Shown: in pieces, positions 1-20,000 of the stretch
Layout: each line of letters begins with the position of its first letter
Position numbering within the stretch: position 1 is the first letter of the stretch
IMG/VR virus record: IMGVR_UViG_3300020048_000100
Source: an uncultured virus (IMG/VR IMGVR_UViG_3300020048_000100)
Lineage: Duplodnaviria > Heunggongvirae > Uroviricota > Caudoviricetes
DNA: 20,000 nt
Strand: one strand, 5' to 3'
The notes under the pieces: generated by a model
Database searches by the model: none
Seen by the model: only the letters and a program-made list of their open reading frames with translations
Told to the model about the DNA's origin: nothing
Translations under genes and position numbers: made by a program

Positions 1-94
1 AAAAAAATAGAGAAACAGAAGAAACTTCTTTACCAGACTATATTGGTCCAAGTATTGTTGTAATACTTGTTTGAATTTGAGTATTTATTATCAT
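1..94 (-). CDS. Hypothetical protein, N-terminal fragment (runs off the window start)
   Basis: ATG at 94 with GGGGG SD-like run at 106-110. Reads MIINTQIQTSITTILGPI*SGKEVSSVSLFF with one in-frame TAG. Confidence 0.6.
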
Positions 95-110
95 ATCAAA
101 AATTACCCCC

Positions 111-1310
111 TTAATTTTTTAATTCAATAAAATATGTCTATCCATCATATATAATTTTTAAAATATTTACAGCATTCTAAGATATATCAAAAGTATTTTC
201 TGTATTATTTAACCATTTTATATTACTATCTTTTAATGTTATAGTATAGTTACCAATATTATTTTGTATTAAAAACAAAGTCTATTCAAATCCATAATTT
301 ATATCAGGGCAAATAAAATATAAATCAAGATTTTCATTAATAATTAGTTTTTGTATATTACCATTAGCCCAATCTATAAAAACAGAACTCATATCCATTT
401 CATTTTCTACTACCTTATATCCAAATATATTTTCAACTTTTGATGGTGTATCTGTTTTCATAATTTTATTTGATTTTTTTTCATATGTTAAATCATGGTT
501 ATGAATTGGTGTTGATAATCTATTAACATAGAAATATAAAATATCAGATATATTTAAATATTGCAAATAGTCATAATCATTATTATAATAGTTACAGTTT
601 AGAGTTATATCATCAAAATTTATTGTTTCATTCTAATTTATCGTAATATTAGTTTCTTTTTTAATAATTCCAATCAATTCAAGCAAAGATAAATCTATAT
701 TTTCATCATCTGTAGATTGGATAATATTTAATATATTATTTATTTCTGATTCAATACTATTTTCTGACAATTCAATTTCATAAATTGAATATTCTTTATT
801 TCCAATATGTTTTAAAAAATATAAACTATTCTATGCTTTGTTTGTATAACTTGATGAAATTGTAAATATTAAATTTTCTATAACAGATTGTTTTGATAAA
901 AATCCAGTTATTCTGTATAAACTTGTTTCAACATCTTCTATTATTTCTACAAATTCACATGGCTAAGTAAATGTCTAATTATTATTATTTTTTGATAACA
1001 TAAAATAAGTTTCATTTCTTGATATATTATACAACTCTATAATATTTTCAAACATTGAAAACATTGGCAAATTAAGTTTATTCCAAGAAATGTTAATAAT
1101 ATAATACCCATTTTCTATTATATATGTAACCAAATCTGTTTTATATGGAGTTATTATTGAAAATTGCTAATTCTAAAAATATTTAATATTCGTAACAAAT
1201 TGTTTATGTTGTGATAAAATCTATAAATGAAACAAATCAGTAATACTTGAATTTAATAAACTTCTTGATAATTGACTTCCATTATTATATAGTTTAGGTA
1301 TTGAACTCAT
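111..1310 (-). CDS. Hypothetical protein (~399 aa), probably virion/baseplate-associated by context; TAG read through
   Basis: ATG at 1310 with GGGGTGG SD, open to TAA at 111-113 when TAG is sense. Contains track ORF 282..566 in frame. Starts immediately after the upstream gene's TGA (1312-1314). Confidence 0.75.
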
Positions 1311-1311
1311 T

Positions 1312-4300
1312 TCAAAATTCCACCCCAATCCAAGAAAAAAAACTTTCGTAGTTATACTAACTTAATGAATTTTTTTCTTTTAATACATCCCTGAGAAAAA
1401 TTGTATTATGCTATTGTGACTGGTATTGACTTTTCTAAAATACACTGCTCATTAAAACTAAATTTGAATAAATATTAGAACCATGCTCAATCAAATTACC
1501 TTCCAAATCTTTAATTTTTATATCATTATAATTCCTTAATTGTATTTTATCGCCACCAATATTAACAGAAATTATATTATCCTAATATACTTTCTATTCG
1601 TGAACATTTATAAATGCTATATTACATGATGTATTTGATATAAAATTCAATTTAATTTTTTCAATATCCAATAAATTAGTTATACTAAACAATTCAATAT
1701 AAATATTGTTTAATTCTCTATCCATCTTATAAATTAAATCATATTTACCTATAAAACTGGTTTCTAATATATATTCATATATTATAATATAATTTAATTC
1801 ACCAGCAGAATTAAATTTATGAAATAAATAAAATATTCTAATATTAGAATCTTTATTATATAAATTATATTTACTATATTTATCTATTAATCCACCATCA
1901 ATCAAAAATGAGTCTGAATTTAATGTATCTATATTATTTCTAAAATAATAATTATCTGAATTTCCATATATAAATGATTTTAAAGGATTAATAGTAATGT
2001 CATTTGTTGAAATATATTTACTTAGTTCTTCTAAATCATTATCAAACTACTTCTAATCAAATACATTATAATAAGGTGAATTGAAATAAATATTTGAAAT
2101 ATATCTACCATCAACATGCATTAACTAACTGTTATAATCATCTATATTATTAAATCTTTTTCTATTTAGATAAGGTTCTAATTTATAATTAGCAACTATG
2201 TGTTCTTGACTAATTTCAAATTGTGTAAATAAATTACAATTTATTCTATTGTATAATTCAGTTTTAATCAAATTATTTATATTTATGTTTTCAAAATGTG
2301 AAAATACAGTATCGATTTTATATAAATTAGTATCCTAAATATCTCTAAATATAACTTTTTTTCTATTGTCATCTAATAATTGTATGGATAAATTAAAACT
2401 ATCCTATACTTTTTGTATTTCCTAAGGATATATATATTTATCTAATTTCTAATAATATTCAAGCTACCATTCAGTTAAATAAAATTTATTTGGAGTATAT
2501 AACACCATAATCTGTTTCAAGTTCTATATTTTTAAAATTGGATTATATTTTGATTCAAGTAATACATTAAAATTATTTTTGCTTAATGCCTACATATCAA
2601 AGTTAAAAATTATAGGTATTAATTGATTTGTAACTTGTGGTAAAGATATGATAAAATTTTCATTATAATATGTATCTAAATATAAATGCAATATTTTTTG
2701 CAAATTTATAAATTTAAAAAGATTTCCTGTAGATTGCTCAATATCATATATTTCTAAATGTGTAACATCCTATAAATTTTCTTTTAGAGTTACTTTTAAA
2801 TGATAATCAATTTTATAATTTCTATATATACTATATTTATTAAATGTAGAAATAAGTTCATATTCCTAAAGTTGTATTTGCTTATATTTTGTAATAATTG
2901 TACACGCTTTAGATGAATATAGAATACTAATATTTTTTATTATATAATTTTTAGAAACAATATCAATGAATCTTAGATAATATATTTTATTTAATATATT
3001 GCATATATTTGGAAATTCTTTATTGAAAACTAAATTGAATATTGTAAAATTATTAAATGTTTTATTTTGAATCGTACACTATTTTTCCAATATATTTATG
3101 TTTTTATTTTTTATAGATTTAAAGCTAAAATTAAACTCCAATATTTTTCTATTTGCTAAAATAAAATTAATATTTATAAAATCAAAGTTATTTGTATTTC
3201 TAATATTTTTAAATTGTACAAAATATGTATTAGATTTATTTATAATTCCATAATATAATATATTAAATATATCAATTACTGTAATATTTTTAATAATTTT
3301 AGAACTAAAATTAAACTGTTTTTGTATATTTTTTATTAGTGTATAAGCAATACTACTTGATGCTGTTGATCCCTATGTTCCACCATTTATTTTAACTGTT
3401 CCGTTCCCTGTTTTGTTAAGGTTCAACTAATATGAAATTGGAGTAAATTGAGCAGTATAAGTTGTCTACTACTATGGCATATTAAAAGTATAAGTCTAAT
3501 TGCTTGATACTAATGTTCCACCATTGTACCAACCATTAAACAAATATCCAGAATTTGGTTCTGCATATATTGTAGTAGATGTTTCAACTTCAATCTAATA
3601 AGTTATTAAATAAGTGTACCAAGAATTATTATTTACTTTAACTCTTCCAGTATTTGGAATTCCAATACCAAGTGTTAAATCTCTTTTTTTTATAAATTTT
3701 GCAGTATATGTTATCTATGACTAAGGCATATTAAATGTATAAGCCTAATCGTTTGATACTAACGTTTCACCATCGTACCAACCAATAAAAACATTTAATA
3801 TACTAACAGGAGTTGGATTTGCTGTTATTGTAATTGAAGTATCAGAAACAAAACCACTGGATGCAGTCTAATCCTAAGTACCACCATTTATTTGAACTGT
3901 TCCAACTCCAGTACCAGCAGTATTTAAATTTAGTTGATATATTTGTGCTTCAATTCCAAATGAACTTTGTGAACCCTAAGATACATAGTTCCAAGTTAAC
4001 TAATCATTAACTAATTTTGGTATATAAGGTTCATAATATCCAGCAATACCCAACTGGTTAAAATTATTGTTTCCCCAAGCATATAACTAATTATTATTTT
4101 CTAATATTGCTAAAGTGTGATACCCATTTTCCCCAAATCCAACACTCACTTGTTTCCAAATACTATTACCTATTAAAGTTGGGGAAGTTTTATTAACTTT
4201 TGTTCCATCACCCAATTGACCAATACCGTTAAGTCCCCATGTATATAAATTTCCATTTATATCAAGTGCCTAACACATATACTTCTACATATTGCATGAT

Positions 4301-5022
4301 ATCTATTTCCAATCAGATGTTCCAATTTGTGTTGGAGTATATCTATTATTAGTATCGCCAAGACCTAAAACACCATATTCATTATATCCCCAAGAATATA
4401 ATTTATTATTACTTGCTATTCCAAAAGAAGCATAATACCCCTAAGAAATATATTTCCAAGTTGAAACTCCTATTTTTGTCTATATTGTTACTGAAGTGGA
4501 AGTTGATCCTATACCAGCTTGCCCATAACAATTATTACCCCACTAATACAAATAATCGTTTTCGTCTATAGCTAATACAGCACTATCAAACGCACATGAT
4601 ACAGTTTTCCAATTTGAAGAACCAATTTGAAATGGAGTATATGTTGAACCTATTGTTGGATGTGTATATATTATATAATTATTATACCCCCATGCAAATA
4701 ATTTATTATATTCATCTATAGCAATACAACTTGGATAATTATAAGCACTTACACACTATACAACTTGCTTCCAATTAGATGTTCCAATTTGTGTTGGAGT
4801 ATATCTATCAGTAGTATCTCCAAGACCTAAAACACCATATTCATTATATCCCCAAGAATATAATTTATTATTATTTTTTATTGCAAATCCAGAAAATATC
4901 TAAATATTTACCTATTTTATATCAGTAAGACCAGATGCTGTTGGAATAGTTACAGTCTATGTATTTCCATTGCCCAACTACCCATATAAATTTCTACCCC
5001 AAGAATAAAGATTATTCTACAT
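1312..5022 (-). CDS. Large virion protein (~1236 aa): N-terminal RCC1-repeat beta-propeller, InlB B-repeat-like modules, long unassigned C-terminal region
   Basis: ATG at 5022 (GGAGGG SD) with no TAA/TGA in frame until TGA at 1312. RCC1 repeats such as LYSWGYNEYGVLGLGDTTDRYTPTQIG and GQLGDGT at ~4000-5020. Modules such as FIGWYDGETLVSND*AYTFNMP*S*ITYTAKF at ~3350-3950. Contains track ORF 1594..1905 in frame. Confidence 0.85.
4307..4872. repeat. Intragenic direct repeat, ~104 bp x2 (4307-4410 and 4769-4872), duplicated RCC1 blade
   Basis: The two copies are 462 bp apart, in frame, and differ at about 4 positions by manual alignment. Confidence 0.85.
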
Positions 5023-5041
5023 AAACCCTCCGTAACTCTTT

Positions 5042-7444
5042 TTAGCAACTCAGAGAATTATATATTTCAAAACTTGCAAATGTTTCTGATATAATATCTT
5101 CATCAAACTAAGATTCCTACTATTGATTATATTTCTATTTATAATTTAATAATATACACTGTGTATTATTAGACTAATTAAAAGTCTTTACAATTTTTAT
5201 TCTGGAATATGTTGTATCAATTATTTGTGGAACTGGAAGAACTGTATCTTTAACTGTATATAATGGTAATATAGTATAATCATACTATATAATTTCTTCT
5301 TGTAATTTTATATTTATTGGATTCTACATTATAAAATTTTCAAACTCTAATGTTTCATTAAATATTTCATTAGTGCCACTTTTAATTATTTCCCCAATCT
5401 GATTTTCAAATAAGAATAGATTTAAAGAATTTGATATAAAATATTCTTCGTTTGAATTTGTAGATATTGGTAGTAAATACTATGTCTTTATTTTTTTTGG
5501 CTTATTCTAAATAATTTGAAATTGCAATGGTAATATATCATTAGATTCCAAAGTATTTTCTATAATAACATCAAAAGATTCTAAAAACTTTTCCATATTA
5601 ACATTTATAATGCCATTTACTTCTGATATTGCAGTTAATATATCTATTAAATTTATATTTTCATAAATATTAAATCTATTATTTTCTATTTTAGAATACT
5701 GATCTAACTTATCTTTTAGATTATAAAATATTGAATTTATAGATATTTTAGAATCCTAAAATATTTCTATTGGATTTTTACTATATATATAATAAATTTT
5801 ATTACTCTAAAACTAAACATCCATTGTCTATATTATATTGTTTTTTAATTCTTGCTGAATATTATATTTTTCTTTTGTATAATTAAATTTAGATAATATT
5901 ATTGGGTCTTTGATTAACTCAGAAGATAATATTTTACTTCCTTTTGGCAAATAGAAATTTCTTAGATTATCATCTTTAAATAACTAAGGGCAAATATATA
6001 ATCTATTTTCTAACCCATTAACATATGATTTATTTTGTATGTATTTATAAGTTGAAGTCTAATTAAGAGAATCAGAAAATCCTCTGAGGAAATATTTTAA
6101 ATAATTATTTATGTCATTTATTGTTACTATTTTATTTTTCTATTTAATATATGAATTAAAATTATGTTTTATAGACTCTATTTTTTCCTAATTTCTCCCA
6201 ACAACTACATTTTCTTCTTGCTTAACTATAATACTTAATGGGCTATAGCCATAATACTGCATAGATTCATTTGTATTTTGTATATTTAATAAATCAAATA
6301 AATATATTTCTGTTTTTTGATTTTGTAATTCTTCCTATGTTAAATAGCTCTTTGTATTGAAATTGTATTTTATTTTTATTTTTTGAGGGATAAACAATCC
6401 TTTTATATTGTAATCAGTATAATTATTAAAATCAACATAATTCAAATATATTTTATCATTTATTAAAATTTGAGATTCAAGACCAACATATCTGTTTACT
6501 TGCCCTAATATCTAATTCTAATTTTCACCTTTTGTTTGATAATACTATAAAAATAATGGTAAATCATTCTACTTTATTTTATAACCATTATTAATATCAT
6601 CACCATTTATTAACTCAAAAATATTTGTTATTTCATTATAACTAAGAGTTATATATTTATTTTTAATATAAGAATCATAATCTGATACATGATACTTACT
6701 ATTCTAAATAGTTTCTACATTCTTAAATGTATCATATAAATACTCAGTAATATTTCTATTGTTAAACATATATTCAATTTTTGTTTTTGACATTATTTTT
6801 AGATCTAAATAAAGTCTTTTGAAATCATCTATATAATGATCTTTGATTATATAACCTTCTGTTTCTGATAATATATTATTCCTTGATAGTTCTTCCAAAT
6901 TTGGATTAAATGGTTTAATAACCAAATGCATTTGTATAAACTAAAATATATTACTTCCATTTGTGGATGCCATTCTGTATGAATAATATTCATTATTTTT
7001 TCCAAATTTATCCATTGTTCTTGTAACAAGAATTGAATTTTTATTTAGCCAAATATTGTTATTCTAATCAATGACTCGTAATATCAGAGGTGGAATTATA
7101 AAATTTTCTATTTCCAGCATATTTAATTGTATCATTGATTTTGAATCAAATTTTAAATTTAAATTAACTTGCGAAGGTATACCAAAATTCTTTTTATATC
7201 CATATTGACTTAATAATAATTCTATTTTATCATTATTCTATGTTGCAATATAAAAATCTGAAACCTATTGCTCAAATTGATTTGATATTAATACAGTTAT
7301 ATAACTCTATATATCTGTTATTAAAGACTATGAATCCTATTGATTAAAATCAATATATTTATATTTATCATAATTAGATTTTAAATATTCAATAATCTAT
7401 TCTTTAAGAAAATATGGATTTACTAACTCATTAGGCTATGGCAT
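5042..7444 (-). CDS. gp6: Baseplate wedge subunit, T4 gp6-like (~800 aa); TAG read through
   Basis: ATG at 7444 (GGGGG SD), open to TAA at 5042. N-terminus IIEYLKSNY...IDFN...LITDI*SYI...EQ*VSDFYIAT*...QYGY and central YYQTKGEN*N...GRN*EKIESIK...K*KNKIVTIND match gp6/baseplate-J-like motifs. Confidence 0.75.
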
Positions 7445-7481
7445 ATTTTAACCCCCAAAAATACTGCAATTTATTTTTTAC

Positions 7482-7496
7482 AAATAACTTAATCAA
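7482..7496 (-). promoter_or_regulatory. Candidate phage late-promoter motif TTGATTAAGTTATTT upstream of the baseplate gene
   Basis: Identical 15-mer at 9307-9321 and a one-mismatch 12-mer core at 11166-11177, each just upstream of a minus-strand transcription unit start. Confidence 0.45.
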
Positions 7497-7523
7497 TTTT
7501 AATCTATTTTTTCCATTTAGGTC

Positions 7524-7552
7524 TTGACAAATTGATTTTTTTATGGTATAAT
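7524..7552 (+). promoter_or_regulatory. Consensus sigma70/sigmaA promoter with extended -10
   Basis: TTGACA (7524-7529), 17-nt spacer, TG-n-TATAAT (-10 at 7547-7552), upstream of an AGGAG SD and ATG 7595. Confidence 0.9.
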
Positions 7553-7594
7553 TTAAAACTTGAAAAAAGGAACATAAAAAAGGAGATATCAAAA

Positions 7595-7816
7595 ATGATT
7601 AAAAACTTTAAATTTAGAAATACAAGAATGTATACATTTTTCTTATGTCTTAAATTCAATATAAGAATGAAAATTGGTGAATGTTTATAGATAATTAAGA
7701 AAACTGGTAATTATAAATATGATTTTGATAAAAATGAATGGATAAAAATTAAAAATAATGAAAATTATAATTTTAATGATTCTAAAAATAAAAATCTTTT
7801 AATTAGAAAAAAATAA
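7595..7816 (+). CDS. Small hypothetical protein (73 aa, one TAG), paralog of the next gene
   Basis: AAGGAG SD and ATG 7595; TAG at 7688-7690; TAA at 7814-7816. The GNYKYDFDKNEWIK motif lies after the TAG and is shared with 7833..8117. Confidence 0.75.
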
Positions 7817-7832
7817 AAAGAGGTGCATTAAC

Positions 7833-8117
7833 ATGTTTAAAAATGAAACAATCGCTAAAACATATTTGTATCTACATAATAGATATGGTGATACTAAATT
7901 ATATCAATTTTTTATTGGTATATATTTTAAGATAATACATAAAATAGCATTTATTAAATCTCTTAATAAAAAAAGAGGTAATTATAAATATGATTTTGAT
8001 AAAAAAGAATGGATTAAAAAAGAAATTTTTTTTAATTTAAATGATTTCAAAAATACAAATAATACAGATTTTGATGAAAAAGTAAATAAAACAAAACGTT
8101 GTTTACCAATCAAATAA
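7833..8117 (+). CDS. Small hypothetical protein (94 aa)
   Basis: GAGGTG SD; ORF in track; GNYKYDFDKKEWIK motif; no TAG; ends in TAA. Confidence 0.8.
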   Translation: MFKNETIAKTYLYLHNRYGDTKLYQFFIGIYFKIIHKIAFIKSLNKKRGNYKYDFDKKEWIKKEIFFNLNDFKNTNNTDFDEKVNKTKRCLPIK

Positions 8118-8184
8118 TTTGAATTAATTTGATTAAATTAAATATAAATTTTACATTTAAAAACTAAAATGGGGGGAACTAATT

Positions 8185-8637
8185 ATGGAATCTACTTTTA
8201 ATTCAAAAGATGTATTTATTAATAAACTGTTTAATTTTCTTAAAAATAGTACATTTATAAATGATTTTAATTTTGAGAATGATGAAATAAACACTATTGA
8301 TCAATTTGAAAATAGATTTGGGCATAATGTAAATGAAGATGCAAAATTTACTACAATGACAATAACATTAGATACTGGTATTAATTTTGTATTTTATAAT
8401 ACACCAGAAACAGATAAATTTAAAGTTGGTGTTTATAGTTATGATTTTCTTTCTAAAAGAAGATATAAACTATTTTATTCTGATACACCAATTACAAGTG
8501 AAGAGTTTAATAAAATACTTATTTTGCTAAAAGATAGGCATTTCAGTGTTGACAATCCAATTAAATCATTGGAAGATTAGTTGTATTTAACATCAGATGA
8601 TGAAACTCCATTGAATGAAATTGAAGAAATAATTTAA
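8185..8637 (+). CDS. Hypothetical protein (150 aa with TAG read through)
   Basis: GGGGGA SD. The track ORF stops at TAG 8578-8580; readthrough adds *LYLTSDDETPLNEIEEII to TAA 8635-8637, which closes the gap to the next gene. Confidence 0.75.
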
Positions 8638-8660
8638 TTAAATAGAAAGAAGGTTAATTT

Positions 8661-8807
8661 GTGCAAGTAATAGGTGCATTTGTATCTATTTTATTTATCT
8701 GGTTATTTTTTAATTTTTTAATTTATAAGATTAAAGAGTTGAAGCAACTAAAAGAGGAAAAAGAAAAAATAATTATCCAAAATTTTGTTAACAAATATAA
8801 AAAATAA
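8661..8807 (+). CDS. Small membrane protein (48 aa, N-terminal hydrophobic helix, basic tail)
   Basis: GTG start after GAAGG; MQVIGAFVSILFIWLFFNFLIYKIKELKQLKEEKEK...; TAA abuts the terminator hairpin. Confidence 0.6.
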   Translation: MQVIGAFVSILFIWLFFNFLIYKIKELKQLKEEKEKIIIQNFVNKYKK

Positions 8808-8829
8808 ACCCCCAATAACTGGGGGTTTA
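8805..8829. terminator. Intrinsic terminator between convergent genes, probably bidirectional
   Basis: TAAACCCCCA-ATAAC-TGGGGGTTTA perfect hairpin with A/T-rich flanks. Confidence 0.85.
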
Positions 8830-8836
8830 AATTTAA

Positions 8837-9274
8837 TTATTTATAATCATCTGTAAACATTGTATCTCCATCGGGAAACAGTTTACACTACCAAGTAATC
8901 TTCTTACCATTTTCATCTATTTTTTCATATCCCTAAATAGGATATCTGATATTCATATTACCCTATTGACCAGAAACAGAATCAAAATTTTTAATATTTC
9001 TATAAAAATATACAATTTCATTTACATTTGCAAATTTAGTATCAAATGAAACAACTTTTCCTGAGTTATGAACTACCTAAAATCCAATTAGTTTTTTAAT
9101 TTCTATATTTTTTATAGTTCTTTTAGTTATATTTCCATTTTGTGAATAAAATTGTGGAATAATTTCATAATCTGTATCATTGTTTTTACTATAAACCTCA
9201 AGCCAACACCATTCGGTATCCAAAAATTTTGGCTATCCAATATAGTTTTCTTGATTAGAATAATCAATATTCAT
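8837..9274 (-). CDS. Hypothetical protein (145 aa); TAG read through
   Basis: ATG 9274 with GAGAGGA SD; MNIDYSNQENYIG*PKFLDTEWCWLEVY...; open to TAA 8837. Confidence 0.75.
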
Positions 9275-9306
9275 TTTGAATCATCCTCTCTTTTTTTGAA
9301 ATTTAT

Positions 9307-9321
9307 AAATAACTTAATCAA
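9307..9321 (-). promoter_or_regulatory. Candidate late-promoter motif, second copy
   Basis: Identical to 7482-7496; lies between the terminator at 9347-9369 and ATG 9274. Confidence 0.45.
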
Positions 9322-9346
9322 AAAAATCTTAAAAAAATAAAAAAAA

Positions 9347-9369
9347 AGACTCCTATTTTTTAGGAGTCT
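9347..9369 (-). terminator. Rho-independent terminator
   Basis: AGACTCCTA/TAGGAGTCT stem followed on the minus strand by a long U tract, downstream of stop 9397. Confidence 0.9.
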
Positions 9370-9396
9370 AAATCGTCTAATTGCAATAATATAATA

Positions 9397-9954
9397 TCAA
9401 ACAGTTTCATCATAAGAAACTGAAATTGTTGTTGTTCCCCCTGCTGTCTAAGATGCCTATACATGCAAAGTCAAATAAACAAAATCAGTATAACTATCTT
9501 CTACTGTAATACTATTAGTTGTACTTCCACCAATAGTTATATTAGGATTTTCTGGTGAAGAAGTTGGAATTGTTGTATAACTTACTAAATCACCCTAACC
9601 AATTTCTGACGTAGAACCACCAACTGGCTAAGTGTATGTTTGCACAGTTTTATACAATAATGTACAATTTGCAGATGGGTTAGCATTAGTAGCCCAAATT
9701 CTAAAATTTGAAATAGAAGCACTTGCTGGTGTTCCCATATCAGAAACTAAAAGTCTTAAAACTCTTTCGTAAGAAGTATTAGGTGAAGATGGCAAAACTC
9801 TAATTGGATATGTCTATGGTGACTATAATGGGCTAACATCCTACCCCATCAATGGTAAACTTGTTAAATCCTATCCTTCATTATCTTCAACAATTGTTCC
9901 ATCTCCTGCCCCAACAGCCCCATAACTAACAGATAATTTAACAACAGCCTACAT
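9397..9954 (-). CDS. Putative virion structural protein (185 aa, Ser/Thr/Gly-rich, beta-strand pattern)
   Basis: AAGGGGG SD; M*AVVKLSVSYGAVGAG...TYPI...SYERVLRL...ISNFRIW...TDFVYLTLHV*AS*TAGGTTTISVSYDETV; ends in TGA; follows the neck gene. Confidence 0.75.
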
Positions 9955-9978
9955 ATAAATCCCCCTTTAATATTAGTA

Positions 9979-10704
9979 TTAAAAAATTGAAATAGGTTCT
10001 ATAAAATGCGAATGACGGTTCTTCATTTCATCTTCAAGTTCTTTCTTCTATGTCTACTACTCCTAAAGAAGTGTAGAACCATCCAGTTGTATTTGACCTA
10101 CAGTTGTCTGTAAACTTGATATTTTACTACGTATTCGACCCAAAACCTCTTTCGCTTCCTATATAGAGTAATTTAATATCCACATTATATCTGATTCTGC
10201 TATATCAATTAACAATGGGAAATAAAAATAAAATACCAATACTTTAGATTTATTATCAAATTTTTTATAAAATTTTAAAGTATAGGTTCTTTCATCCCAA
10301 GTCCATTCAGGATCAATTCGTAATACTTTTTTAACCATATCATAATAGGAAAAGGTTTCAACCATAGATTGTATATTACCAATAAGAAAATATGGTTTAT
10401 ACATTGAATTAAATAAATGAAAATTATCATCTTCTCTATAAACTTCTTTAACACCAGTAATATTTCTACCCAATGAATCTTGAACTCTAATAGAATACAC
10501 ATCAAGAAGAGGATCGAATGATTCAGATATATAAACACCCATATATGGGTTTTCCTTAGCATAAAACAATCTCTATTTGTTTATCTACATGTCTATTTGT
10601 TCAGATGTTAGTTCTACATTTATTACTGGAAATCCAAGAGAGTTTAGCAAATTATCTTTTATATATTGAAATCTCTATACCTCTTCATGTGGTATAATAC
10701 TCAT
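9979..10704 (-). CDS. gp13: Neck (head-tail adaptor) protein, T4 gp13-like (241 aa)
   Basis: LGFPVINVELTSEQIDM*INK*RLFY and WILNYSI*EAKEVLGRIRSK...IQLDGSTLL*E match the N- and C-terminal gp13 motifs. Contains track ORF 10159..10569. Confidence 0.85.
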
Positions 10705-10709
10705 TTAAT

Positions 10710-11147
10710 TCAATTGGCTCCTTCAAACTGTTTCAGAATATTTGCTTTACTCATTTTTTGATATTTTGCTGTATCTTCATCTTGAATTTTACCAGAATCA
10801 ACATAATGCTTAATTAATTCTTGTTTAGTCATGTTTTCAATTTCAATAATATCTTCATTTTTTTTATCTACATCTACATATGAAGATGTTTCTAATTTTG
10901 GTTCTTCAATTTGAACTTTTTTAATATCTTCTATTTCTTTAATTGTTGTTTTAACAATAGATTCTTTTTCTTTTACCTCATAAAATACATTTGGATTTTT
11001 AGTGATATAATATAACAACTAATCTTTATATTTCTAATTAAAATTCTATGTATCATATTTTTCATTTTGCTTAAAATAAAATACATCAGAATTGATCATG
11101 AAATTTACATCTTTATATACCCCAAACTTTATATCTTGCATATCCAT
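10710..11147 (-). CDS. Hypothetical protein (145 aa) downstream of the capsid gene
   Basis: Track ORF 10710..11018 extends through 3 TAGs to ATG 11147 with a GGTGA SD. Confidence 0.7.
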
Positions 11148-11221
11148 TAATCATCACCGTCCTGTTAAGTTAATCAAAAATTCTTGTGAAAGTTGTTTTT
11201 CTGTGTAATTCAGAATTAAAA

Positions 11222-11257
11222 ATAAAGACCATCTAAGATGGTTAAGATGGTCTTTAT
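11222..11257 (-). terminator. Terminator after the major capsid gene
   Basis: ATAAAGACCATCT...AGATGGTCTTTAT 13-bp inverted repeat with U-rich tail on the minus strand. Confidence 0.8.
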
Positions 11258-11275
11258 CTTATTTATATCTTATTC

Positions 11276-12745
11276 TCAGGCAGTAGGATTCAAAATTTTA
11301 AGTTTTCCAAACCAATCATTACGATACATATGAGTAGCATATCTTGTATGGAAAACAATTCCCATTTGCCCTGTGCTTTCAGTCCAAGGTACAGCAGTCA
11401 AAGGAATGTAAGGAGCATAAACATAACCAGATTCCTCAATACGTGAACCCTTATAAACCATAAGAATTTCATCTGTGGGCACCAAATTAGATGTATAAAC
11501 TTTATAAGTTCCACCATTAACATCAAACTTAGAATATCCAACAGATACGTTTTCTTCTCCAAGAGGGGTAATAGAAGAAGCCCCATAGGACTACAGCTAA
11601 CTTCTAAGAATCTACAATGCGGTTGGGTGCATAACCATAATCTTAGGTTCAGCAATGTTAGTTCTTGTCTACATTGTCTATGCAAGTTCATTTATCTTAA
11701 TCATTAATGTTTCATACCAATCTTTTCTTGTTCCATAGAAAGCAGATGCGGGTTGCTGTTTATCCCAAGTAACATAATTACTCTTGCTCTATCCATTAAA
11801 CAATTCATTCAGAATCTGACCATTGATTTCTTGAGCTAAAATATTAGCAATATTATCATACATTTCAACTTGAGCATCAAGACCATCAATAGCAGACACA
11901 TCTTCCCAAAATTCAGGGTGCCATTTTGCTCTCAGCTTTCTATTAGAAACGGTAACCTATTCATTAGAGATTTCAAAAGTAACTTCTCTACCATTGAAAT
12001 CAGAATTTTCCTATGAAACCCAATCTTTTGAGTATTCAACTTTAAGTGTCCAAGTACCAGTAGACTATGCTTTTCTAAGTTTTTCAATTGTATAAATTGC
12101 AAGAACACCATTTTCATAGTCAACTGATCCAATAATACCATCACCAACAATCTTTCCAAGCCCATCATCAGACTAAATATATTCAGGGTCTAAGAAAGAA
12201 CCAGAATCTCCAACAACAGTATTCTGCAAGAAAAGTTTTACACTACCAAGGGCAATCTTTGTTGAAAGACCTGTTTTAACCCATGATTGTGTATCATTTG
12301 TGCTGTTGATTTCATTTTCAGCAGAAACAAGTGCAGCAGAAACAGGAATGTTCTAACCACTCAAAGGAACGATCCCAGGAAGTTGTGTATTCTAATAATT
12401 TACAACCAATTTTCTAATGAATCCAGTAGGCTATGAAATAGCTTGTGTGGAAACAATCTCATTAGCAATAAGCATAGGCCAATATCGTCTAACCAATGGA
12501 AGAATAACCTTAGAAACTTTCGCAACATCAAATTGTGAGTTAACAGCTTCTGTCAAAAGGTATTTTCTTTCATTTTCAAGAACCATATTAAACTGTGCTT
12601 GCATTTTAGGACTTGTAAGTGTCTTTGATTCAGTTGTAATAATTCTTTTCTTGAGCTAATCCCAAAGGGTATCTGTGGTAACAACCTTTGCAAAATTATC
12701 TTCCAAACTTTTGTTTTTCTCGTACATACTTGAAAAATTTGCCAT
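11276..12745 (-). CDS. gp23: Major capsid protein, T4 gp23-like (489 aa, 14 in-frame TAG)
   Basis: AGGGGG SD. Motifs LPLVRRYWPMLIANEIVSTQAIS*PTG, RKLRAKWHPE...DGLDAQVEM...QEINGQIL and YKGSRIEESGYVYAPYIPL...TRYA. Confidence 0.95.
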
Positions 12746-12781
12746 AACTTTAATCCCCCTATTATTATTTAATTAAGTTTT

Positions 12782-14869
12782 TCACTATAGTTTTTCAATT
12801 GAATTAAGTGTGTTTTTAAAATTTGAATTTTCGTCTGGATATACTGTATTAATTTTTGATGTATTCAAAAGTTTTGAGCTATCTTTAATAGAAACATCCT
12901 TTGTTGCTGGTGTTGCAACTTCTTTTACTTCTTTTTTCTTTTCAATGTCAAACAAACGCATAAACTATTCATTTAATATTGTATTTCCATCTTTTGAATA
13001 AGATTCTTCTAAATTTTCTTCCTCTTCCTCGTCGTCCTCATCATCTTTAGGTTCTTCATTTAAAATGTCATCTGTTGTAAGATCAGGATTGAAACTATTT
13101 TCAGTATTATCTTTTATGTCTTCCATTGAACCAGATTCTGGTTCTTCTGGTGTTTCGTCTGGAGTTTCAGGCTCAGGTATTGGTTCTGGCTCAATTTCCC
13201 CCTAAATAGCTTGTGTATCTTCTTTTTTCTATCCAAGTGTTTCCAAAGAATCAGAAACATTATTCTAAACTTTATCCCCCAATTGTTCCTATGTATTATT
13301 AAGTAATTCTTCAATTTTACTAACAATTTGTTTTGTTACTTCTGCCTAAATAGAATCAATTTGAATTTCAGGTTTTCCCTATTCTGGTTCAAGTTCAGCA
13401 GTATCCTCAACATCCTATTCAAAATCTTCATCTGCTTCTTTTATAATTTTTTTAGATTTTTTAATTTGCTTAGATTCAATCTAAACTTCACTTATATTTG
13501 ACCAATCCATCTAACCAGAACTAATTTTTCCAACTGGTTTTTGTGTTTTATCAGACATAATTGTGTATTCTTTTGATTTTGAAAGCATTGGAATTATTCT
13601 TTCGATATCTGCTTTTGATTTAAAGAAACAACCATCAAATAAATCAGAATCCAAAATATAAAACAGTTCTTTAACATTATTATCAATTTCAGAAGGTTCC
13701 TCTTCAATCTCAGATTCTGGGGTTTCTGTAAATGGTTTTGATACTGGTTCAACAGAATTTTCCTATTCTTCTTTAATAACTTTTTTATTAGTGGTTTTCT
13801 ATTCCTATTGCAAAGTTTTTTTCTATTCATCCAATTCTTTTACTTTTGCATCAAAACTATCTACCAAAGTGTCTTTCTACTATTTTGTTTGATCAGATGG
13901 ATTTTCCATATAATTCTTATTCTATTCTGTTAATTTTTCATAAATGATTTTAAGTTCATCTGTTAATGTTTGAATTTTATCCATTTTCTCACTCTACTCT
14001 TTTACAATATTATTTTTATTCATAGTTGTCTACTCCTATATATTTTTAAATTTTATGAAATCATTCCATTTTATGATTGCTTGATTCTAATTGTTATCCT
14101 ATTGGTTTTCTAAGTTTAACTATGTATTAAAATCATATGCTACATAATTTTTTACAGAATTTAAATCTAATTCATCAGATTGTATATCAACAGGAATACC
14201 TTTACCACTTGTAACTGCATTAACGATATCATACATAATACTTAAATCATTTTCATTATTTTTAAATTCTTTTTTAAAATTTTTTGTTGGTATAGAAACT
14301 ATGTAATTACCATTTTCCAAAAAATATATTTTTTCAGTAGTATTATTTTCTGTAATAAGATTTGTTTCTAATGATTCCATAATTCTTTTTTTAACTTCTT
14401 TAACTTTAGTGTTTTTATTTGATTTTATATTACTCTCTATCAATGCAATAAGTTCTTTTTTTATTTTCTATGTCTAAGATTCAATAAACTGCATATTTTC
14501 ATCTGAATCAGAATCTGTTTGATTTTCCAAATCTAATACTAAATCCTCTTTTTCAACTTCTTCTGGTTGTATGAGTATATTTGTTTCTGTTTCAGACTTT
14601 TGTGATGTTACCCCTTCATTTGCATTAGTTTCACCATTTAAAGTTTTTTCAATAGCATCTACAAAATTTATATCTAATCCTGCTTCTTTCTATTTAGTTA
14701 TAACTTTTTCTTTCTATAAATCATATATTGTATTCTAAATAGTATAGAGTTCTGATGTATTTGGTTCCTCAAAATTTTCTGGGATATCTTGTATTCTATT
14801 TTGTGGATTGCCTGAGTATGTTTCCCAAGACAATTCTGAATTTCTGATTTCTTCTGGTGTCATTGTCAT
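12782..14869 (-). CDS. Prohead core/scaffold protein (up to 695 aa, acidic, Glu/Pro-rich); possible second start at 14023
   Basis: AAGGAG SD and ATG 14869; no TAA/TGA in frame until TGA 12782. Lies between protease and capsid genes. Many I/L-x-E motifs. Internal AGGAG...ATG at 14023 is in the same frame. Confidence 0.7.
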
Positions 14870-14878
14870 AACTCCTTA

Positions 14879-15619
14879 TTACATAATTATTTTATTTCTA
14901 AACTATGATACTTCACGCTAAATAAACTATTTTAATTGTTTAATTTCAGATTCTTTTATAGAAGTATCATTTTTAATATCATTTTCTAATAATTTAAATA
15001 AAATAATATCATTCAACTTCTATAACTATTTTGTATTACCTATAATTTCTTTATTTTTATCTATTAAATAATTCATGTTTTCTACTAAATTTTGTTTTGT
15101 AAAATATGTAATTGGATATGACGGATTAGAAACAATATCCCATGTAATAATATCTAATGATTCAGCAATATAATTTCCTTTTGCCTATCTTAATTCACCA
15201 GACTATCTCAAACTTGTGCCAATAGAAATATCTTGTTCTATTAGATTCATAAGAATCTACCCATTTGGATTATTTTGAATTATTTCAAATTCTCCACCAA
15301 CAATTTTATTATTTTTGTCTACTTTAATATCAGTAATTAAATGGGACTATTCTTTAAAATATACAAGCCCTGATCTCTCATCACCATGGGGATGGTCAAG
15401 TTCTCCAACTAACTAACGTTTTGAAATTTTTTCTTGAATATTAGAAATCTAAGTTTCCATTTCTTGTAGTGGATAGATTCGTCTATTAGCACCCTATACA
15501 TCGCATTCAATAAGATTTAATCTAAATTTTTTAGGTTTTTCTTTATTGTTAACAGAAACAGATTCTGTTATAATTGGTTTTTGATATAATTTAACTTCAT
15601 TTAAAATCATTTTTGACAT
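14879..15619 (-). CDS. gp21: Prohead core protein protease, T4 gp21-like (246 aa)
   Basis: GGTGA SD. Motifs ANRRIYP, GELDHP, *SHLIT, NPNG*IL, IGTSLR*SG and WDIVSNPS; ends TAA TAA. Confidence 0.92.
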
Positions 15620-15706
15620 GTATTATCACCATCTCTAATTTTATTATTCACTTAATTTAACTAAAAATTTACGTAATTTCTTTTTAATGGAAAAATTATT
15701 TTTACA

Positions 15707-17725
15707 TTATTCTTTTTCTTCTTCATCTTCTTCAGTTTCTATAGTTTCTTTAAAATTCTATAACTCTGTAGATGTAAATACTTTGAAATAATTCAATAAA
15801 TTTTCTACACTAAACCCTGTCATTTCATTTATACTTCTTATTAGATCCAATCTCTAAGATATTGTTTCCTATCTTTCCTTTTGCTCAAGCTATACAGGCT
15901 AAAATAGTTTACAAACAATTTCTTCTTGGTTAAGCATATCTTTAATAGTCTTATCTACTAAATATGTTGTTCTTTTATTATTTATTGTTGATAAAATATT
16001 AAAACTGTTTAAGAATAATTGATTAATTCCTTCATTCAAATCCTATTGAAGATGTATAATCTGCCTCTACATTCTGTGATCTTGTAAAGTTAATACTGTC
16101 TATTGTCCACTTAAATTTTCATTATATCCTAAATAGGAAGGGGGGATTTTCAAAGATGATAGTAATTTATCATGCCAATATTTCATATCATCATACCACT
16201 ATTGCATTTGCTATCCTTCTACGTTTTCTATATTTAATAATTCATTTCCATTTTTTTTCAATATAAAATAATCTTCCATCAATGTAATTAAATCAAGATT
16301 TTCTTGTAATGTACCATTAACATCAATAGTTTTTTGTGATTTCAATTCATTTTTAATTCTGTTAACATATTCAGGTATTTTTTCTTTCTAAATTCCAGTT
16401 ACGTCTACAACATACTTTTTTCTATCTGGCTATTTTGTTAATCTGTATATGATCATCTAATATTCTAATAATAATATTAAAGACTATATAGACCTAACAG
16501 AATCTAATAACCCCTAACCATATGGATAATATTTATAATCAGTTAAAGTAAAATGCTAAATATGATCTGGTAAAATATATCTAACCATTCTATTTTTTAA
16601 TATGCTCCCATAATTTGGATCAATATCCATTAACTATTCTATTCTTTTATCTTCTCCACTTTGTGTTTTATTTCCCATATATGGATTTAAATCAATTTGG
16701 AATTGCAATGTAAATTTATCTTTTAGCATCTAAGAATTGACTGTCTATTCTTTTAATAATTCCTAAAAATTTGCTCTTTGAAAAGAATCATTTAATAATA
16801 CGGATCGAATATCATCAAACTATTTTGCAGTTGATTTATTACTCTAACCATTTAAATCCATTATAGATTCAAACATAATATCTTGGTTGTCTACTGATTC
16901 TTTAAATACCTAAATATTAGTAAAGTTTTTAAATTTTTCAACATCTAATTCTTTTAATAAGAATGTTAAAAAATCTAAACTTAATCTTGTTTCATCTAAT
17001 AATTCATTATTTATATCTTTTGGAAGAACTAAATAACCAAGACATACATTATCTAATTGCAATATTAAAACTTGTTTTGGTGATAGTGAATTGTATGTTA
17101 AATAATTAGAAACGAATAAATCTTTATTTAATTTTTTTGATACAATATTCTATTCATCTTTATTAGACAAAATTGGGTCTGATATTTCTATAAATCCATC
17201 ACCATAAAACAACTAATTATGTATAGCTTGTTTTATAATTGGATAAATTTTATTTCTTCTTGCATATATACTTAAATAATCCTATAAATTAACATTAATT
17301 TTTTGAAGCAACCCATCATTATCTTTTTTAAATTCAAATTCTTGTATCTATTCTTCTGTGTTCATATCAAAATTTATAAATTCAGATGTATATATTTCTG
17401 GATTTATAACTAAATCATATACAAGTTTAACCTAATTATTCTATTCTGGTATTTTCTACTATATGAGTTCATACTCCATATATCTTGATAATCTCTATTG
17501 AATATATCTTGAATAATCAAATTGAGAAAATTTCTGAATCTAATCATTGACATCGCCAAATATTCTACTACTTAATAGCCCATAATACTGATCTTCGACT
17601 GTTTGCTCTATTTTATCTTTTGTATAATTAAAAATTTTCTGTTGTAATTCTGAATCTACAACATTTTTTGTTCCTCTATTAAAAATTGCTTTCTAAAATT
17701 TCTTTATTGAATCACGTATTGCCAT
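15707..17725 (-). CDS. gp20: Portal protein, T4 gp20-like (672 aa)
   Basis: Motifs IPE*NN*VKLV, FYGDGFIE, I*HF...PYG*GLLDSVR...LEY*MIIYRLTK*PDRKKYVVDV, MEDYFI, SLKIPPSYLG and QDHRM*RQIIHLQ. Confidence 0.93.
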
Positions 17726-19277
17726 TGTCTGTATCCCCACTTTCTTCTGAAATCAAATTAATGATTTCATTTTCGTTTGCATCTTTCAAATATAAAAATA
17801 CAATTATTGTTACTAATTTAATCAAATTATTTTGTTTTCCATTAATTATATCAATATAATATAAATAATACTTCTTTTCATTTAATAGAGATTCAACTGT
17901 TCTATTATATAAAACTGGAGAAAAAGACACTTCTTTTTCTTCTTCATATTTTTCAACTGTAATATTTAGTTTTTTACCAAGATAATCTTCTTTAAACTTC
18001 TTTTCTATTTGTATAATTTTATCTAAAGATTCTTGCTATTTTTCTAATATTTTTGATAAAATTTCTTTTACTTCTTGGTTTTTATCGTTATATTTATTAT
18101 AAAGATAAGAAGTTATTGATTTATATGTTAGTTCTGGTAATTTTGATTTTAATGTTTTATTCTAATCTCCAATTATTAAATCATTGATCTATTGTCTAAA
18201 TATTGTTTTTATTGCTGGCTGATCGTTTTCTTTATCATATTTTGTTATGTTTTCTATTGGACTCCAAAAAAATTTATTTAATTCAGAAAAATAATTTCTA
18301 TCAACAAGTTTAACCATTTCATCTTTATTTGTTGAATCTCTAAATACAACTCCTTCAATATCATTTTTGTTATATAATTTATCCTCTAAATTTTTATTTA
18401 TTGATTTTAATAATAACTATTTAATTTTTGTTTTTCTATTAAACATTTCCTCTATAATATTTGACATCTATGTTTTATATTGATCTCTTTTACTTATTGG
18501 AATACTATTTAATTTTAAATTACAAGCTTCATCATTTGTATATTCTGGTATATCTTTATTTTTCTAATTCATAAAATCTTTAAAAGAATTTAATTCCTAT
18601 TTTATTTGATTAAATACCTCTTTATTCTAAAATTCAGGATAATTATTAACTTGTTCTATTTTTGATAATGTCCAAGACTCTTCTTTAACAACAGAAAATA
18701 AATTAACTGATTTTTCATTAACTTCTTCTAATTCATACTGTTTTATTTTAAATGTAAAAACAGAATTTTTGCTTAATAGCTCATCTATAAAAATATCAAA
18801 AGTCTATTCGTTTAATTTTTCTGTTTCATACTCTTTATTATCTAAAATAACTTTTCCACCAAGAGGTCTTATAATAATTAACATACCATATTTATTTCCA
18901 TAATATAATATATTTCCATTTAATGGAGGTACTATTTCACATTCAAAAGAATAATTCTTTTCTTTTGGAAAATATTTTTCAAAAATCTATTTATTTTTAT
19001 TGTATATTTCAGACATAAACTTATGCTAACTTCGTATATTATTATAAATATACGTTTTTCCCCATTCTGTATAATCTTTTTTTAATTCTATTTGATTTTT
19101 AGAAATTCTACACTAATAAATTTTATCTTCTATAATAGAAAATGATATATTCTAAACTCCATCAACTTTTACACTCTATAATAAAGTTTCATCTGGGTTT
19201 ATAATATTATCAACCCATTGGATAAATTTCTTATTTTCTAAATCTTCTATATGAATAATACCTTCTGTTAATATCAT
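17712..19277 (-). CDS. Nucleotidyltransferase/RNA-ligase-fold protein (DUF6267-like, 521 aa)
   Basis: HIEDL, motif I VKVDG, motif III FECEI, motif IV IEGVVF and motif V MVKLVDR...F. Open from ATG 19277 to TGA 17712 and overlaps the portal start by 14 nt. Confidence 0.7.
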
Positions 19278-19293
19278 TTTCTCAACACCTTTA

Positions 19294-20000
19294 TTAAATA
19301 TCTAAGAGTTTTTTAAACAAGTTTTTCTATTCTTTTTTTGTAGTTATTAATTGTTTATATAATTGTTTAACCTATTCTGATGGGTTTTTGATATATTGTA
19401 TCTATTTATAATTTTTATTTATCTACTACGTTTGAACCTATTCTGTTGGGTTTTTAATATATTTTAACTAATACTAATCTTGCTTAACCTACTATAATTG
19501 AACCTATTCTGATGGGTTTGTAATATATTGTATCTAATTCCAATTTTGTTTAATCTACTACATTTGAACCTATTCTGATGGATTTTTAATATATTCTAAC
19601 TAATATCCATTTTGATTTACCTACTACATTTGAACCTGCTCTGATGGATTTTTAATATATTGTATCTAAAACCCATATTTTTTAATCTACTACATTTGAA
19701 CCTATTCTGATGGGGTTTTAATAAATCGAATCGAATATTCATATTGATTAATCTACTACATTTGAACCTATTCTGATGGGTTTTTTATATAACATATCTA
19801 ATTTCCATTTTGATTTACCTACTATAATTGAACCTATTCTGATGGGGCTTCAATATAATATATCTAATTTCCATTTTGATTTACCTACTATAATTGAACC
19901 TATTCTGATGGATTATCAATATATTTTATCTAATGCCCACTTTGTTTTACCTACTATAATTGAACCTATTCTGATGGATTATCAATATATTTTATCTAAT
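19294..20000 (-). CDS. Helical tandem-repeat protein (DUF4116-like), C-terminal part; start lies beyond the window
   Basis: 22-aa unit NPSE*VQ(L/M)**(V/I)(K/N)QNGx*IxYIK repeated in one frame, ending TAA TAA at 19294. Confidence 0.85.
19365..20000. repeat. Coding tandem repeat, 66-bp period, about 10 copies in window
   Basis: CCTATTCTGATGG core (or a near variant) at 19371, 19437, 19503, 19569, 19635, 19701, 19767, 19833, 19899 and 19965. Confidence 0.95.

Follow-up and report, generated by a model that had tools for sequence, protein, structure and literature searches.

We analysed a 20,000-nucleotide stretch of DNA from an uncultured virus (IMG/VR record IMGVR_UViG_3300020048_000100; the whole stretch is referred to from here on as the window), which makes up the head, neck and fibre module of a T4-like phage that is very divergent, and conclude that the amber codon TAG very probably specifies alanine in this phage. 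Profile-column statistics, composition and conservation show a genome in which, as far as sequence can tell, TAG would be read as alanine throughout and translation would end at TAA and TGA. Taken as a whole, the explanation that we favor (a divergent T4-like phage, a TAG = Ala code belonging to its clade and a putative suppressor tRNA that reads it) is a shade less certain than the codon assignment itself and still highly probable. A sequence-only reading of the window had proposed that UAG is decoded mainly as alanine, and this proposal is supported by the column statistics, by the composition, by a repeat protein and by the J domain of a phage DnaJ.

TAG as a sense codon

The window has a GC content of 20-30% (24% for the phage). 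Under genetic code 11, it contains 10 open reading frames (ORFs) of at least 80 amino acids, the longest of which has 136, whereas 23 such ORFs appear when TAG is treated as a sense codon, including 13 large minus-strand genes that are separated by gaps of 5-36 nucleotides or overlap slightly. The proposal that the genes become intact and tightly packed once TAG is read as sense was thus borne out, and so was the comparison of coding density under alternative codes, in which code 11 fails and TAG as sense gives packed genes. In the 13 stop-to-stop ORFs of at least 150 codons, TAG makes up 252 of 6,181 codons (4.1%). All 13 terminate with TAA (8) or TGA (5), as had been noted for the complete genes of the window, although this is true by the definition of such ORFs. 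Each of the positions singled out by the sequence-only reading proved, when checked on the translations, to be an in-frame TAG at the residue given (16430, 16457, 16067, and 17432 in the portal; 10585, 10573, and 10159 in the neck protein; 7238 in an 800-residue ORF; and 4543, 4441, and 3466-3474 in the RCC1-like protein), and two genes described as starting with M-TAG were found at 1312-5022 and 9397-9954. The description of the phage as T4-like also holds, as Pfam, PHROG, and PDB matches to gp20, gp13, and gp23 were obtained, and the gene order portal-protease-scaffold-major capsid protein (MCP) is the order in T4.

The nearest genome, G001 (1.3 Mb in 70 contigs), holds the window in pieces at 99-100% identity. 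We examined 55 of its contigs (C16-C70; the 29-kb C16 by its first 20 kb only). In 25 of these (∼116 kb), the ORFs cover 0-0.55 of the sequence under code 11 (0.28 or less in 23 of them) and 0.32-1.0 when TAG is sense (at least 0.68 except in the 1.8-kb C70). The other 30 contigs have a cover of ∼0.5-0.9 under either code.

Profile columns at TAG codons favor alanine

We built our own hidden Markov models (hmmbuild) from standard-code homologues, aligned the TAG-masked query protein with each, and summed log2(emission/background) over the TAG columns. Because database relatives of the portal and of the ribonucleotide reductase (RNR) with 39-95% identity (Ala ≤1.7%, Gln 5.9-9.7%) had been translated with TAG as glutamine, hits with low Ala or high Gln were dropped (14 of 150 portal representatives, 4 of 120 RNR hits, and 3 of 120 RCC1 hits). 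In this way, 101 of 127 TAG codons in six proteins were scored, with the following totals in bits:

RNR: 116 homologues, 36 of 41 TAG columns; A +35.3, S +9.9, T +4.0, Q -14.5
Portal: 136 homologues, 31 of 34 TAG columns; A 9.1, S 7.9, T 3.1, Q -4.0
DnaJ: 29 bacterial homologues from relatives of G001, 8 of 9 TAG columns; A 8.6, S 0.4, Q -2.6
MCP: 8 homologues, 10 of 14 TAG columns; A 8.2, T 5.3
Protease: 8 homologues, 7 of 12 TAG columns; K 3.2, Q 1.2
RCC1: 117 homologues, 9 of 17 TAG columns; T 3.6, S 2.8, A 2.5, Q 0.7

Over all 101 columns, alanine scored +62.2 bits, serine +21.2, threonine +14.6, and glutamine -22.2, and over the 57 columns of the window's own four proteins, the corresponding values for Ala, Thr, Ser, and Gln were 18.3, 11.3, 10.9, and -5.0. 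The tabulation of the profile consensus at TAG columns, which the sequence-only reading had suggested as a check on its proposal, thus came out for alanine and against glutamine. As the control, we scored the columns of the standard residues in the combined set, and all 20 scored best on their own columns. Further, when 10,000 random sets of non-TAG columns were drawn, stratified by family, alanine scored -36.4 ± 7.6 with a maximum of -7.7, so that none of the sets reached the observed value. Alanine has the highest emission in 36 of the 101 TAG columns, compared with 22 of the 62 columns in which the phage has a GCN alanine codon and with 6% of other columns.

Individual sites point the same way. 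In the portal, TAG occupies three Ala-dominant columns (428, 437, and 558), and T4 gp20 LLEDAVVIYRITRAPDR aligns with LLEYXMIIYRLTKXPDR of the window in such a way that the alanines of LLEDA...RAPD lie opposite TAG. In the neck protein, QRAL and ATALAK of T4 gp13 align with NKXRL and SIXEAK, with Ala opposite TAG at residues 44 and 182. Both alignments agree with the claim that portal and neck TAGs fall on conserved alanines. Four alanines that are invariant in 29 bacterial J domains are TAG in the phage DnaJ, and the same four sites align with alanine in two solved human J domains. In the repeat protein at the end of the window, position 8 of the repeat (the second TAG of VQL-TAG-TAG-V) is TAG in 9 of 9 repeats, and in three standard-code phages this position is Ala in 18 and Ser in 2 of 20 repeats.

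TAG has become the main alanine codon

In the phage contigs, GCN alanine codons amount to 1.8%, Gln to 2.9%, TAG to 3.4%, and Ser to 6.8%; in the co-binned bacterial contigs, Ala amounts to 4.4%, Gln to 2.8%, and Ser to 6.1%. Reading TAG as alanine would bring phage Ala to 5.2%, and TAG would then be the main alanine codon, with ∼65% of the phage's alanine codons. Reading it as glutamine would mean 6.3% Gln with 1.8% Ala, and reading it as serine would mean 10.2% Ser. Per gene, TAG and GCN together make up 1-17% of codons (mostly 3-10%), and the TAG share of alanine codons ranges from 0 to 0.97, at 0.33 for the MCP (the lowest among the structural genes), 0.85 for the portal, and 0.97 for the repeat protein. 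PolB, RNR, DnaB, and DnaJ are recoded too, with 9-41 TAG codons each, and only a few small genes are free of TAG. Four such ORFs of 182-228 amino acids, an MT-A70 methylase and three others of 191-228, use GCN for alanine where ∼6-8 TAG codons would be expected; either translation ahead of the suppressor or recent import may account for them. These ORFs lie at L066:10591-11139, L075:5761-6447, L087:3036-3611, and L097:204-836, and the MT-A70 match scores 114 bits.

Avoidance of the dinucleotide GpC was considered as a driver of the recoding and rejected. The GpC odds are 0.88 in the phage compared with 1.23 in the bacterium. However, NGC/(NGC+NGT) is 0.08-0.24 in the phage, like NAC/(NAC+NAT) at 0.08-0.15, and G|C across codon boundaries occurs at 1.5 times the expected frequency. 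As there is no GpC avoidance outside alanine codons, the low GpC is a consequence of the recoding and not its cause. The change of 1,024 GCN codons to TAG was calculated to lower the GC content by ∼1 percentage point, and AT pressure is possible as a weak driver.

Observations against alanine and other readings of TAG

Several observations weigh against alanine. The protease columns (7 columns) favor lysine and also give glutamine a positive score, and the RCC1 columns (9 columns) place Thr and Ser ahead of Ala; the columns of both families carry little signal, the leading residues being only ∼1-2 bits apart, and the RCC1 sites, which had been cited as evidence for alanine, do not discriminate between Ala, Ser, and Thr. 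One RCC1 site, YG-TAG-LG, would fit what we take to be the GQLG motif of the family. T4 gp23, taken alone, has S, V, V, A, N, V, and I opposite the MCP TAGs. The argument from the VQL-TAG-TAG-V repeat stands for the second TAG only, since the homologues vary (E, K, A, S, N) at each of the three remaining recurrent TAG positions. The strongest families, RNR and DnaJ, sit on other contigs of the G001 bin, outside the window, to which they are tied by shared recoding, composition, and a common C-terminal motif family. ARAGORN and Rfam detected no tRNA of any kind in the ∼137 kb made up of the window, 25 recoded contigs of G001, and 7 related contigs, and none of the 26 tRNAs of G001 has the anticodon CUA. 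Finally, about a third of the TAG columns have G, K, E, or L as the leading residue in the homologues, as is also the case for the GCN alanine columns, and a minority of other residues at TAG would be compatible with the column statistics.

This last observation bears on mixed or context-dependent decoding, in which TAG would mostly specify alanine and partly another residue or termination, or in which a nonstandard residue such as pyrrolysine, invisible to column statistics, would be inserted. The scaffold-like gene ends TAG-TAA, and release factor 1 (RF1) is present in the co-binned bacterium, as such decoding would allow. However, the GCN alanine columns are as spread as the TAG columns (Ala on top in 35% compared with 36%); substantial termination at a TAG frequency of 3.4% would truncate nearly every protein; and the small buried alanine sites of the J domain and RNR are an unlikely place for a bulky residue. 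We give mixed decoding a small probability. Serine (or threonine), inserted by a Ser-type suppressor, is if anything a little less probable still. Seryl-tRNA synthetase also ignores the anticodon; Ser is second overall and nearly ties with Ala in the portal; and Thr and Ser are slightly ahead in RCC1. Nevertheless, the lead of Ala is 41 bits overall and 25 bits for RNR alone, and the order A > S > T recurs on the phage's own GCN alanine columns. At the four invariant J-domain columns, the emission is 0.43 for Ala compared with 0.07 for Ser. Moreover, phage serine is not depleted, and its rise under this reading would leave Ala at 1.8%.

Glutamine (NCBI code 15), the residue with which public collections translate the clade, is very improbable. 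The Q at TAG sites in database proteins P0001-P0007 and P0157-P0160 is there only by the pipeline's choice of code, and what else speaks for glutamine is the protease score, the RCC1 site that resembles GQLG, and one of the 9 repeats, which has a CAG-type Q where the others have TAG. Against this stand the total over 101 columns, a Q emission of 0.00-0.02 on the strongest TAG columns, and a composition far from the 2.8% Gln and 4.4% Ala of the co-binned bacterium; real CAA/CAG columns were recovered as Q by the same method.

That the TAG codons are an artefact of misassembly, pseudogenised DNA, or RNA editing that removes them is more improbable than any of these readings, and nothing was found in its favor. 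Each of the 34 TAGs of the portal recurs as TAG in G001 contig C33 and in four contigs from metagenomes (97-100% nucleotide identity), so that five other assemblies share them and they are no assembly errors, a point that the sequence-only reading had wanted checked. The stretch from MCP to portal is present in 20 runs, 5 of which are RNA libraries, from 14 studies of activated sludge, wastewater, landfill, and digester habitats, and contigs from two DNA runs and two RNA libraries of four studies span it without indels; this comparison was made on contigs and is hence silent on depth, transcript ends, and expression level. The strains differ at 144 positions, and 29 of the 40 differences listed are synonymous and 11 are not, with one of the 40 inside a TAG codon (scaffold residue 134, TAG to AAG). 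The frames are also long, packed, and family-matched.

The code belongs to a clade

The same low-Ala/high-Gln signature marks 13 database portal proteins, down to ∼30% identity. They show "Q" on the three Ala-dominant portal columns (P0012 and P0077 read QQQ), where eight relatives of normal composition have A, S, or T, and in some of the relatives' portals, GCN alanine amounts to only 0.1-0.3%. As the signature extends to relatives of ∼30% identity, the code belongs to a clade and not to one genome. The public-collection proteins translated with TAG as Q, which come out with 0.1-1.7% Ala and 6-10% Gln, are P0001-P0007, P0009, P0010, P0012, P0013, P0063, P0077, and P0157-P0160. Related phage DNA was found on 7 short JGI/ENA contigs. 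The more distant relative L125 (5089 nucleotides, 53% identity) has TAG at 21 of the 34 TAG sites of the window and at 2 of 6 GCN positions of the window, and its TAG share of alanine codons is 0.86. Its GpC odds are 0.42, with an NGC/(NGC+NGT) of 0.044 compared with an NAC/(NAC+NAT) of 0.130 (only 1,649 codons), and parts of the clade, unlike this phage, may avoid GpC. No closer relatives on longer contigs were found in genome_contigs or among 100 relatives of G001. The portal relatives in IMG/VR have only 23-29% identity, and the MCP matches 2,123 phage records, with ∼25-31% identity for the best matches listed.

The co-binned bacterium and a putative suppressor tRNA

The phage code differs from that of its likely host, the bacterium co-binned in G001; the host link consists of the co-binning and a similar GC content (25% compared with 24%), and no other link was found. 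TAG is the stop codon of 29 of 137 ORFs in the bacterial contigs, which also contain an rpoB frame open over 1,239 amino acids, prfA (RF1), and a prfB-like gene. G001 has 26 tRNA genes, with none for Ala, Val, Pro, Asp, or Phe and with a tRNA-Ile of anticodon UAU; we note that this set is clearly incomplete despite a "100% complete" figure for the genome.

In the search for tRNAs described above, ARAGORN found none with default settings and only noise within coding regions with relaxed thresholds, and Rfam at gathering thresholds gave no match in 116.7 kb. A pattern scan of IMG/VR returned, among the matches listed, 81 tRNAs with anticodon CUA in the best 80 of 120 stretches, none of them with G3:U70. 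A strict tRNA-Ala(CUA) pattern had no match in IMG/VR and one unrelated match in genome_contigs (L279:10001-10073, in a metagenome-assembled genome of the archaeon Caldisphaera), where ARAGORN calls no tRNA. No release factor or aminoacyl-tRNA synthetase family turned up among 49 phage ORFs scanned, and a search of G001 for the alaS family found bacterial copies only. The available phage DNA is fragmentary, with, for example, no recognised tail sheath (no such family turned up among 35 further phage ORFs scanned), and the suppressor tRNA may be located on parts of the genome outside it.

Alanyl-tRNA synthetase identifies its tRNA by G3:U70 in the acceptor stem, without regard to the anticodon, so that an alanine tRNA with the anticodon CUA would be chargeable by any host. 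In the mechanism that we propose, an amber suppressor tRNA of alanine identity (CUA, G3:U70), most likely encoded on the unavailable part of the phage genome, would be supplied during infection and charged by the host alanyl-tRNA synthetase, a change of the anticodon alone being sufficient for an alanine-inserting suppressor. Such a tRNA would have to outcompete host RF1 at TAG. The phage genes would be untranslatable without it, and read-through would occur in those host genes that have a terminal TAG (29 of 137 sampled). That the recoding locks translation or helps to shut off the host is speculative. The full proposal, in which amber has become the principal alanine codon across the clade, is decoded by a tRNA-Ala(CUA) that the phage supplies and the host synthetase charges, and acts as a translation lock and as a read-through weapon against a fifth of host genes, appears likely to us.

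Comparison with known recoded systems

A 1996 report by Hayashi-Ishimaru and co-workers is said to describe UAG as alanine in some chlorophycean mitochondria, which would be the same codon and the same amino acid in the organelle of a eukaryote and not in a virus that differs from its host. Recoding of stop codons in phages is known already, and what is unusual here is alanine and the degree to which TAG has taken over from the other alanine codons. Stop-recoded phages include crAss-like, Lak, Garnet, Topaz, and Agate phages, according to Borges et al. (10.1101/2021.08.26.457843) and Peters et al. (PMC9523058), and in the former, only TAG = Gln and TGA = Trp are described for phages whose code differs from that of the host. 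As in those phages, a codon at which the likely host stops is read here as sense. Public gene callers treat such genomes with an alternative table, and tools and databases have TAG = Gln and TGA = Trp built in as fixed assumptions. Unlike in code 15 phages, the TAG columns reject glutamine and fit alanine, and compared with stop-recoded phages, the recoding is not confined to late genes. With T4-like phages, the phage shares the gp23 MCP, the gp20 portal, the gp21 protease, and a gp13-like neck protein, but it is very distant from them, with a GC content of 24% and a different code.

A tRNA of the kind that the proposed mechanism needs has been described: tRNA_CUA-151, derived from a metagenomic phage, inserted alanine in an Escherichia coli extract, as 1 of 29 tRNAs tested by mass spectrometry, the other 28 inserting Gln (Seki et al. 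2025, 10.1101/2025.10.30.685624; PMC12636597). As far as the available part of that article goes, it is a tRNA assay that includes no TAG = Ala phage genome, and it calls reassignment to alanine infrequent, citing green-algal mitochondria and allo-tRNAs (Mukai et al.). In the accessible part of a preprint of 2026 about new prokaryotic codes, CGG = Ala is described and nothing is said on TAG = Ala. We found no phage genome with TAG = Ala reported in the literature searched, in keeping with the sequence-only reading, which had called the code unusual and possibly undescribed.

If the full proposal is true, this would be the first virus code to have a stop codon specify alanine and the first case of a former stop codon serving as the majority codon for an amino acid. 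The protein collection would then have put Q for ∼3-4% of the residues of the clade, roughly two-thirds of its alanine, and searches and family profiles built on TAG = Q proteins would inherit the mistake. An alanine code would also imply that the amino acid need not be one whose synthetase tolerates CUA by accident, and that a synthetase blind to the anticodon can be exploited. The claim is testable with existing metaproteomes, given how abundant and widespread the phage is in wastewater systems, and the phage offers a potential natural alanine-inserting amber suppressor system as well as a case of a stop codon becoming a majority codon.

Genes of the window and of other phage contigs

Read with TAG as sense, the window contains the following genes:

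111..1328, minus strand: 405-residue ORF with 10 TAG; no Pfam or PHROG family match
1312..5022, minus strand: RCC1-like protein of 1236 residues with 45 TAG, begins M-TAG; PF25390 (189.7 bits), PF00415, PF18998, PHROG 7220
5042..7444, minus strand: 800-residue ORF with 32 TAG
7532..8637, plus strand: three small ORFs (94, 94, and 150 residues) with 1, 0, and 1 TAG
8837..9274, minus strand: 145-residue ORF with 5 TAG; no Pfam or PHROG family match
9397..9954, minus strand: 185-residue ORF with 9 TAG, begins M-TAG
9979..10704, minus strand: neck/head-tail adaptor protein, T4 gp13-like, with 8 TAG; phrog_211 (E 8.2e-18), PDB gp13 (E 5.3e-6)
10710..11147, minus strand: 145-residue ORF with 3 TAG
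11276..12745, minus strand: MCP, gp23 family, with 14 TAG and 28 GCN; PF07068 (157.4 bits), PDB gp23
12782..14869, minus strand: acidic 695-residue protein with 29 TAG, ends TAG-TAA; in the position of the scaffold (gp22), a role suggested by position only
14879..15619, minus strand: prohead maturation protease, gp21-like, with 12 TAG; PF03420 (E 1.5e-8), phrog_207 (E 3e-26)
15707..17740, minus strand: portal, gp20 family, with 34 TAG; PF07230 (95.6 bits), alignment with T4 gp20
17712..19277, minus strand: 521-residue ORF with 14 TAG; no Pfam or PHROG family match
19294..19998, minus strand: DUF4116-like repeat protein with 38 TAG in 234 codons, 5′ end beyond the window; phrog_17056 (207.7 bits)

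The RCC1-like protein consists of an N-terminal RCC1-like propeller, InlB B-repeat-like domains, and a long C-terminal part without assignment, and is probably a fibre or host-recognition protein. The label "gp6-like," which the sequence-only reading had given to the ORF at 5042-7444, found no backing, as not a single Pfam or PHROG family matched it. The segment 7423-8613 is the sole part of the window without a counterpart in G001, in which contig C25 ends at 7422 and C70 starts at 8614, and it has the look of a variable insert whose code is compatible with the host. Two of the three small plus-strand ORFs there are paralogues; none has a protein match in G001, so they provide no host link.

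The unit of the DUF4116-like repeat is NPSE-TAG-VQL-TAG-TAG-V...G.-TAG-I. A C-terminal tail, KE-TAG-K[NQ][LY]FKK[IL]L.., is common to at least five otherwise different large phage proteins (window 19294-19335; L080:533 and 5243; L093:1141; L102:2056; truncated copies on L104 and L106). It was not found on the 16 bacterial contigs scanned and could be a shared targeting or assembly signal.

On other contigs of the phage, we note a full-length DnaJ with J, CXXCXGXG, and C-terminal domains (L066:3965-5062) and the RNR (L081:597-3548), which has a TSCPD domain and whose closest named database relatives are annotated as B12-dependent. Further, an actin-like protein with 21 TAG is encoded at L088:2810-3859 (Pfam Volactin, PF25216, 199.5 bits), and a fibre-like protein at L096:3-1268, with 36 TAG in 422 codons, contains long exact internal repeats (GTA-TAG-GTFCQGNDSRLSDSRTP...).

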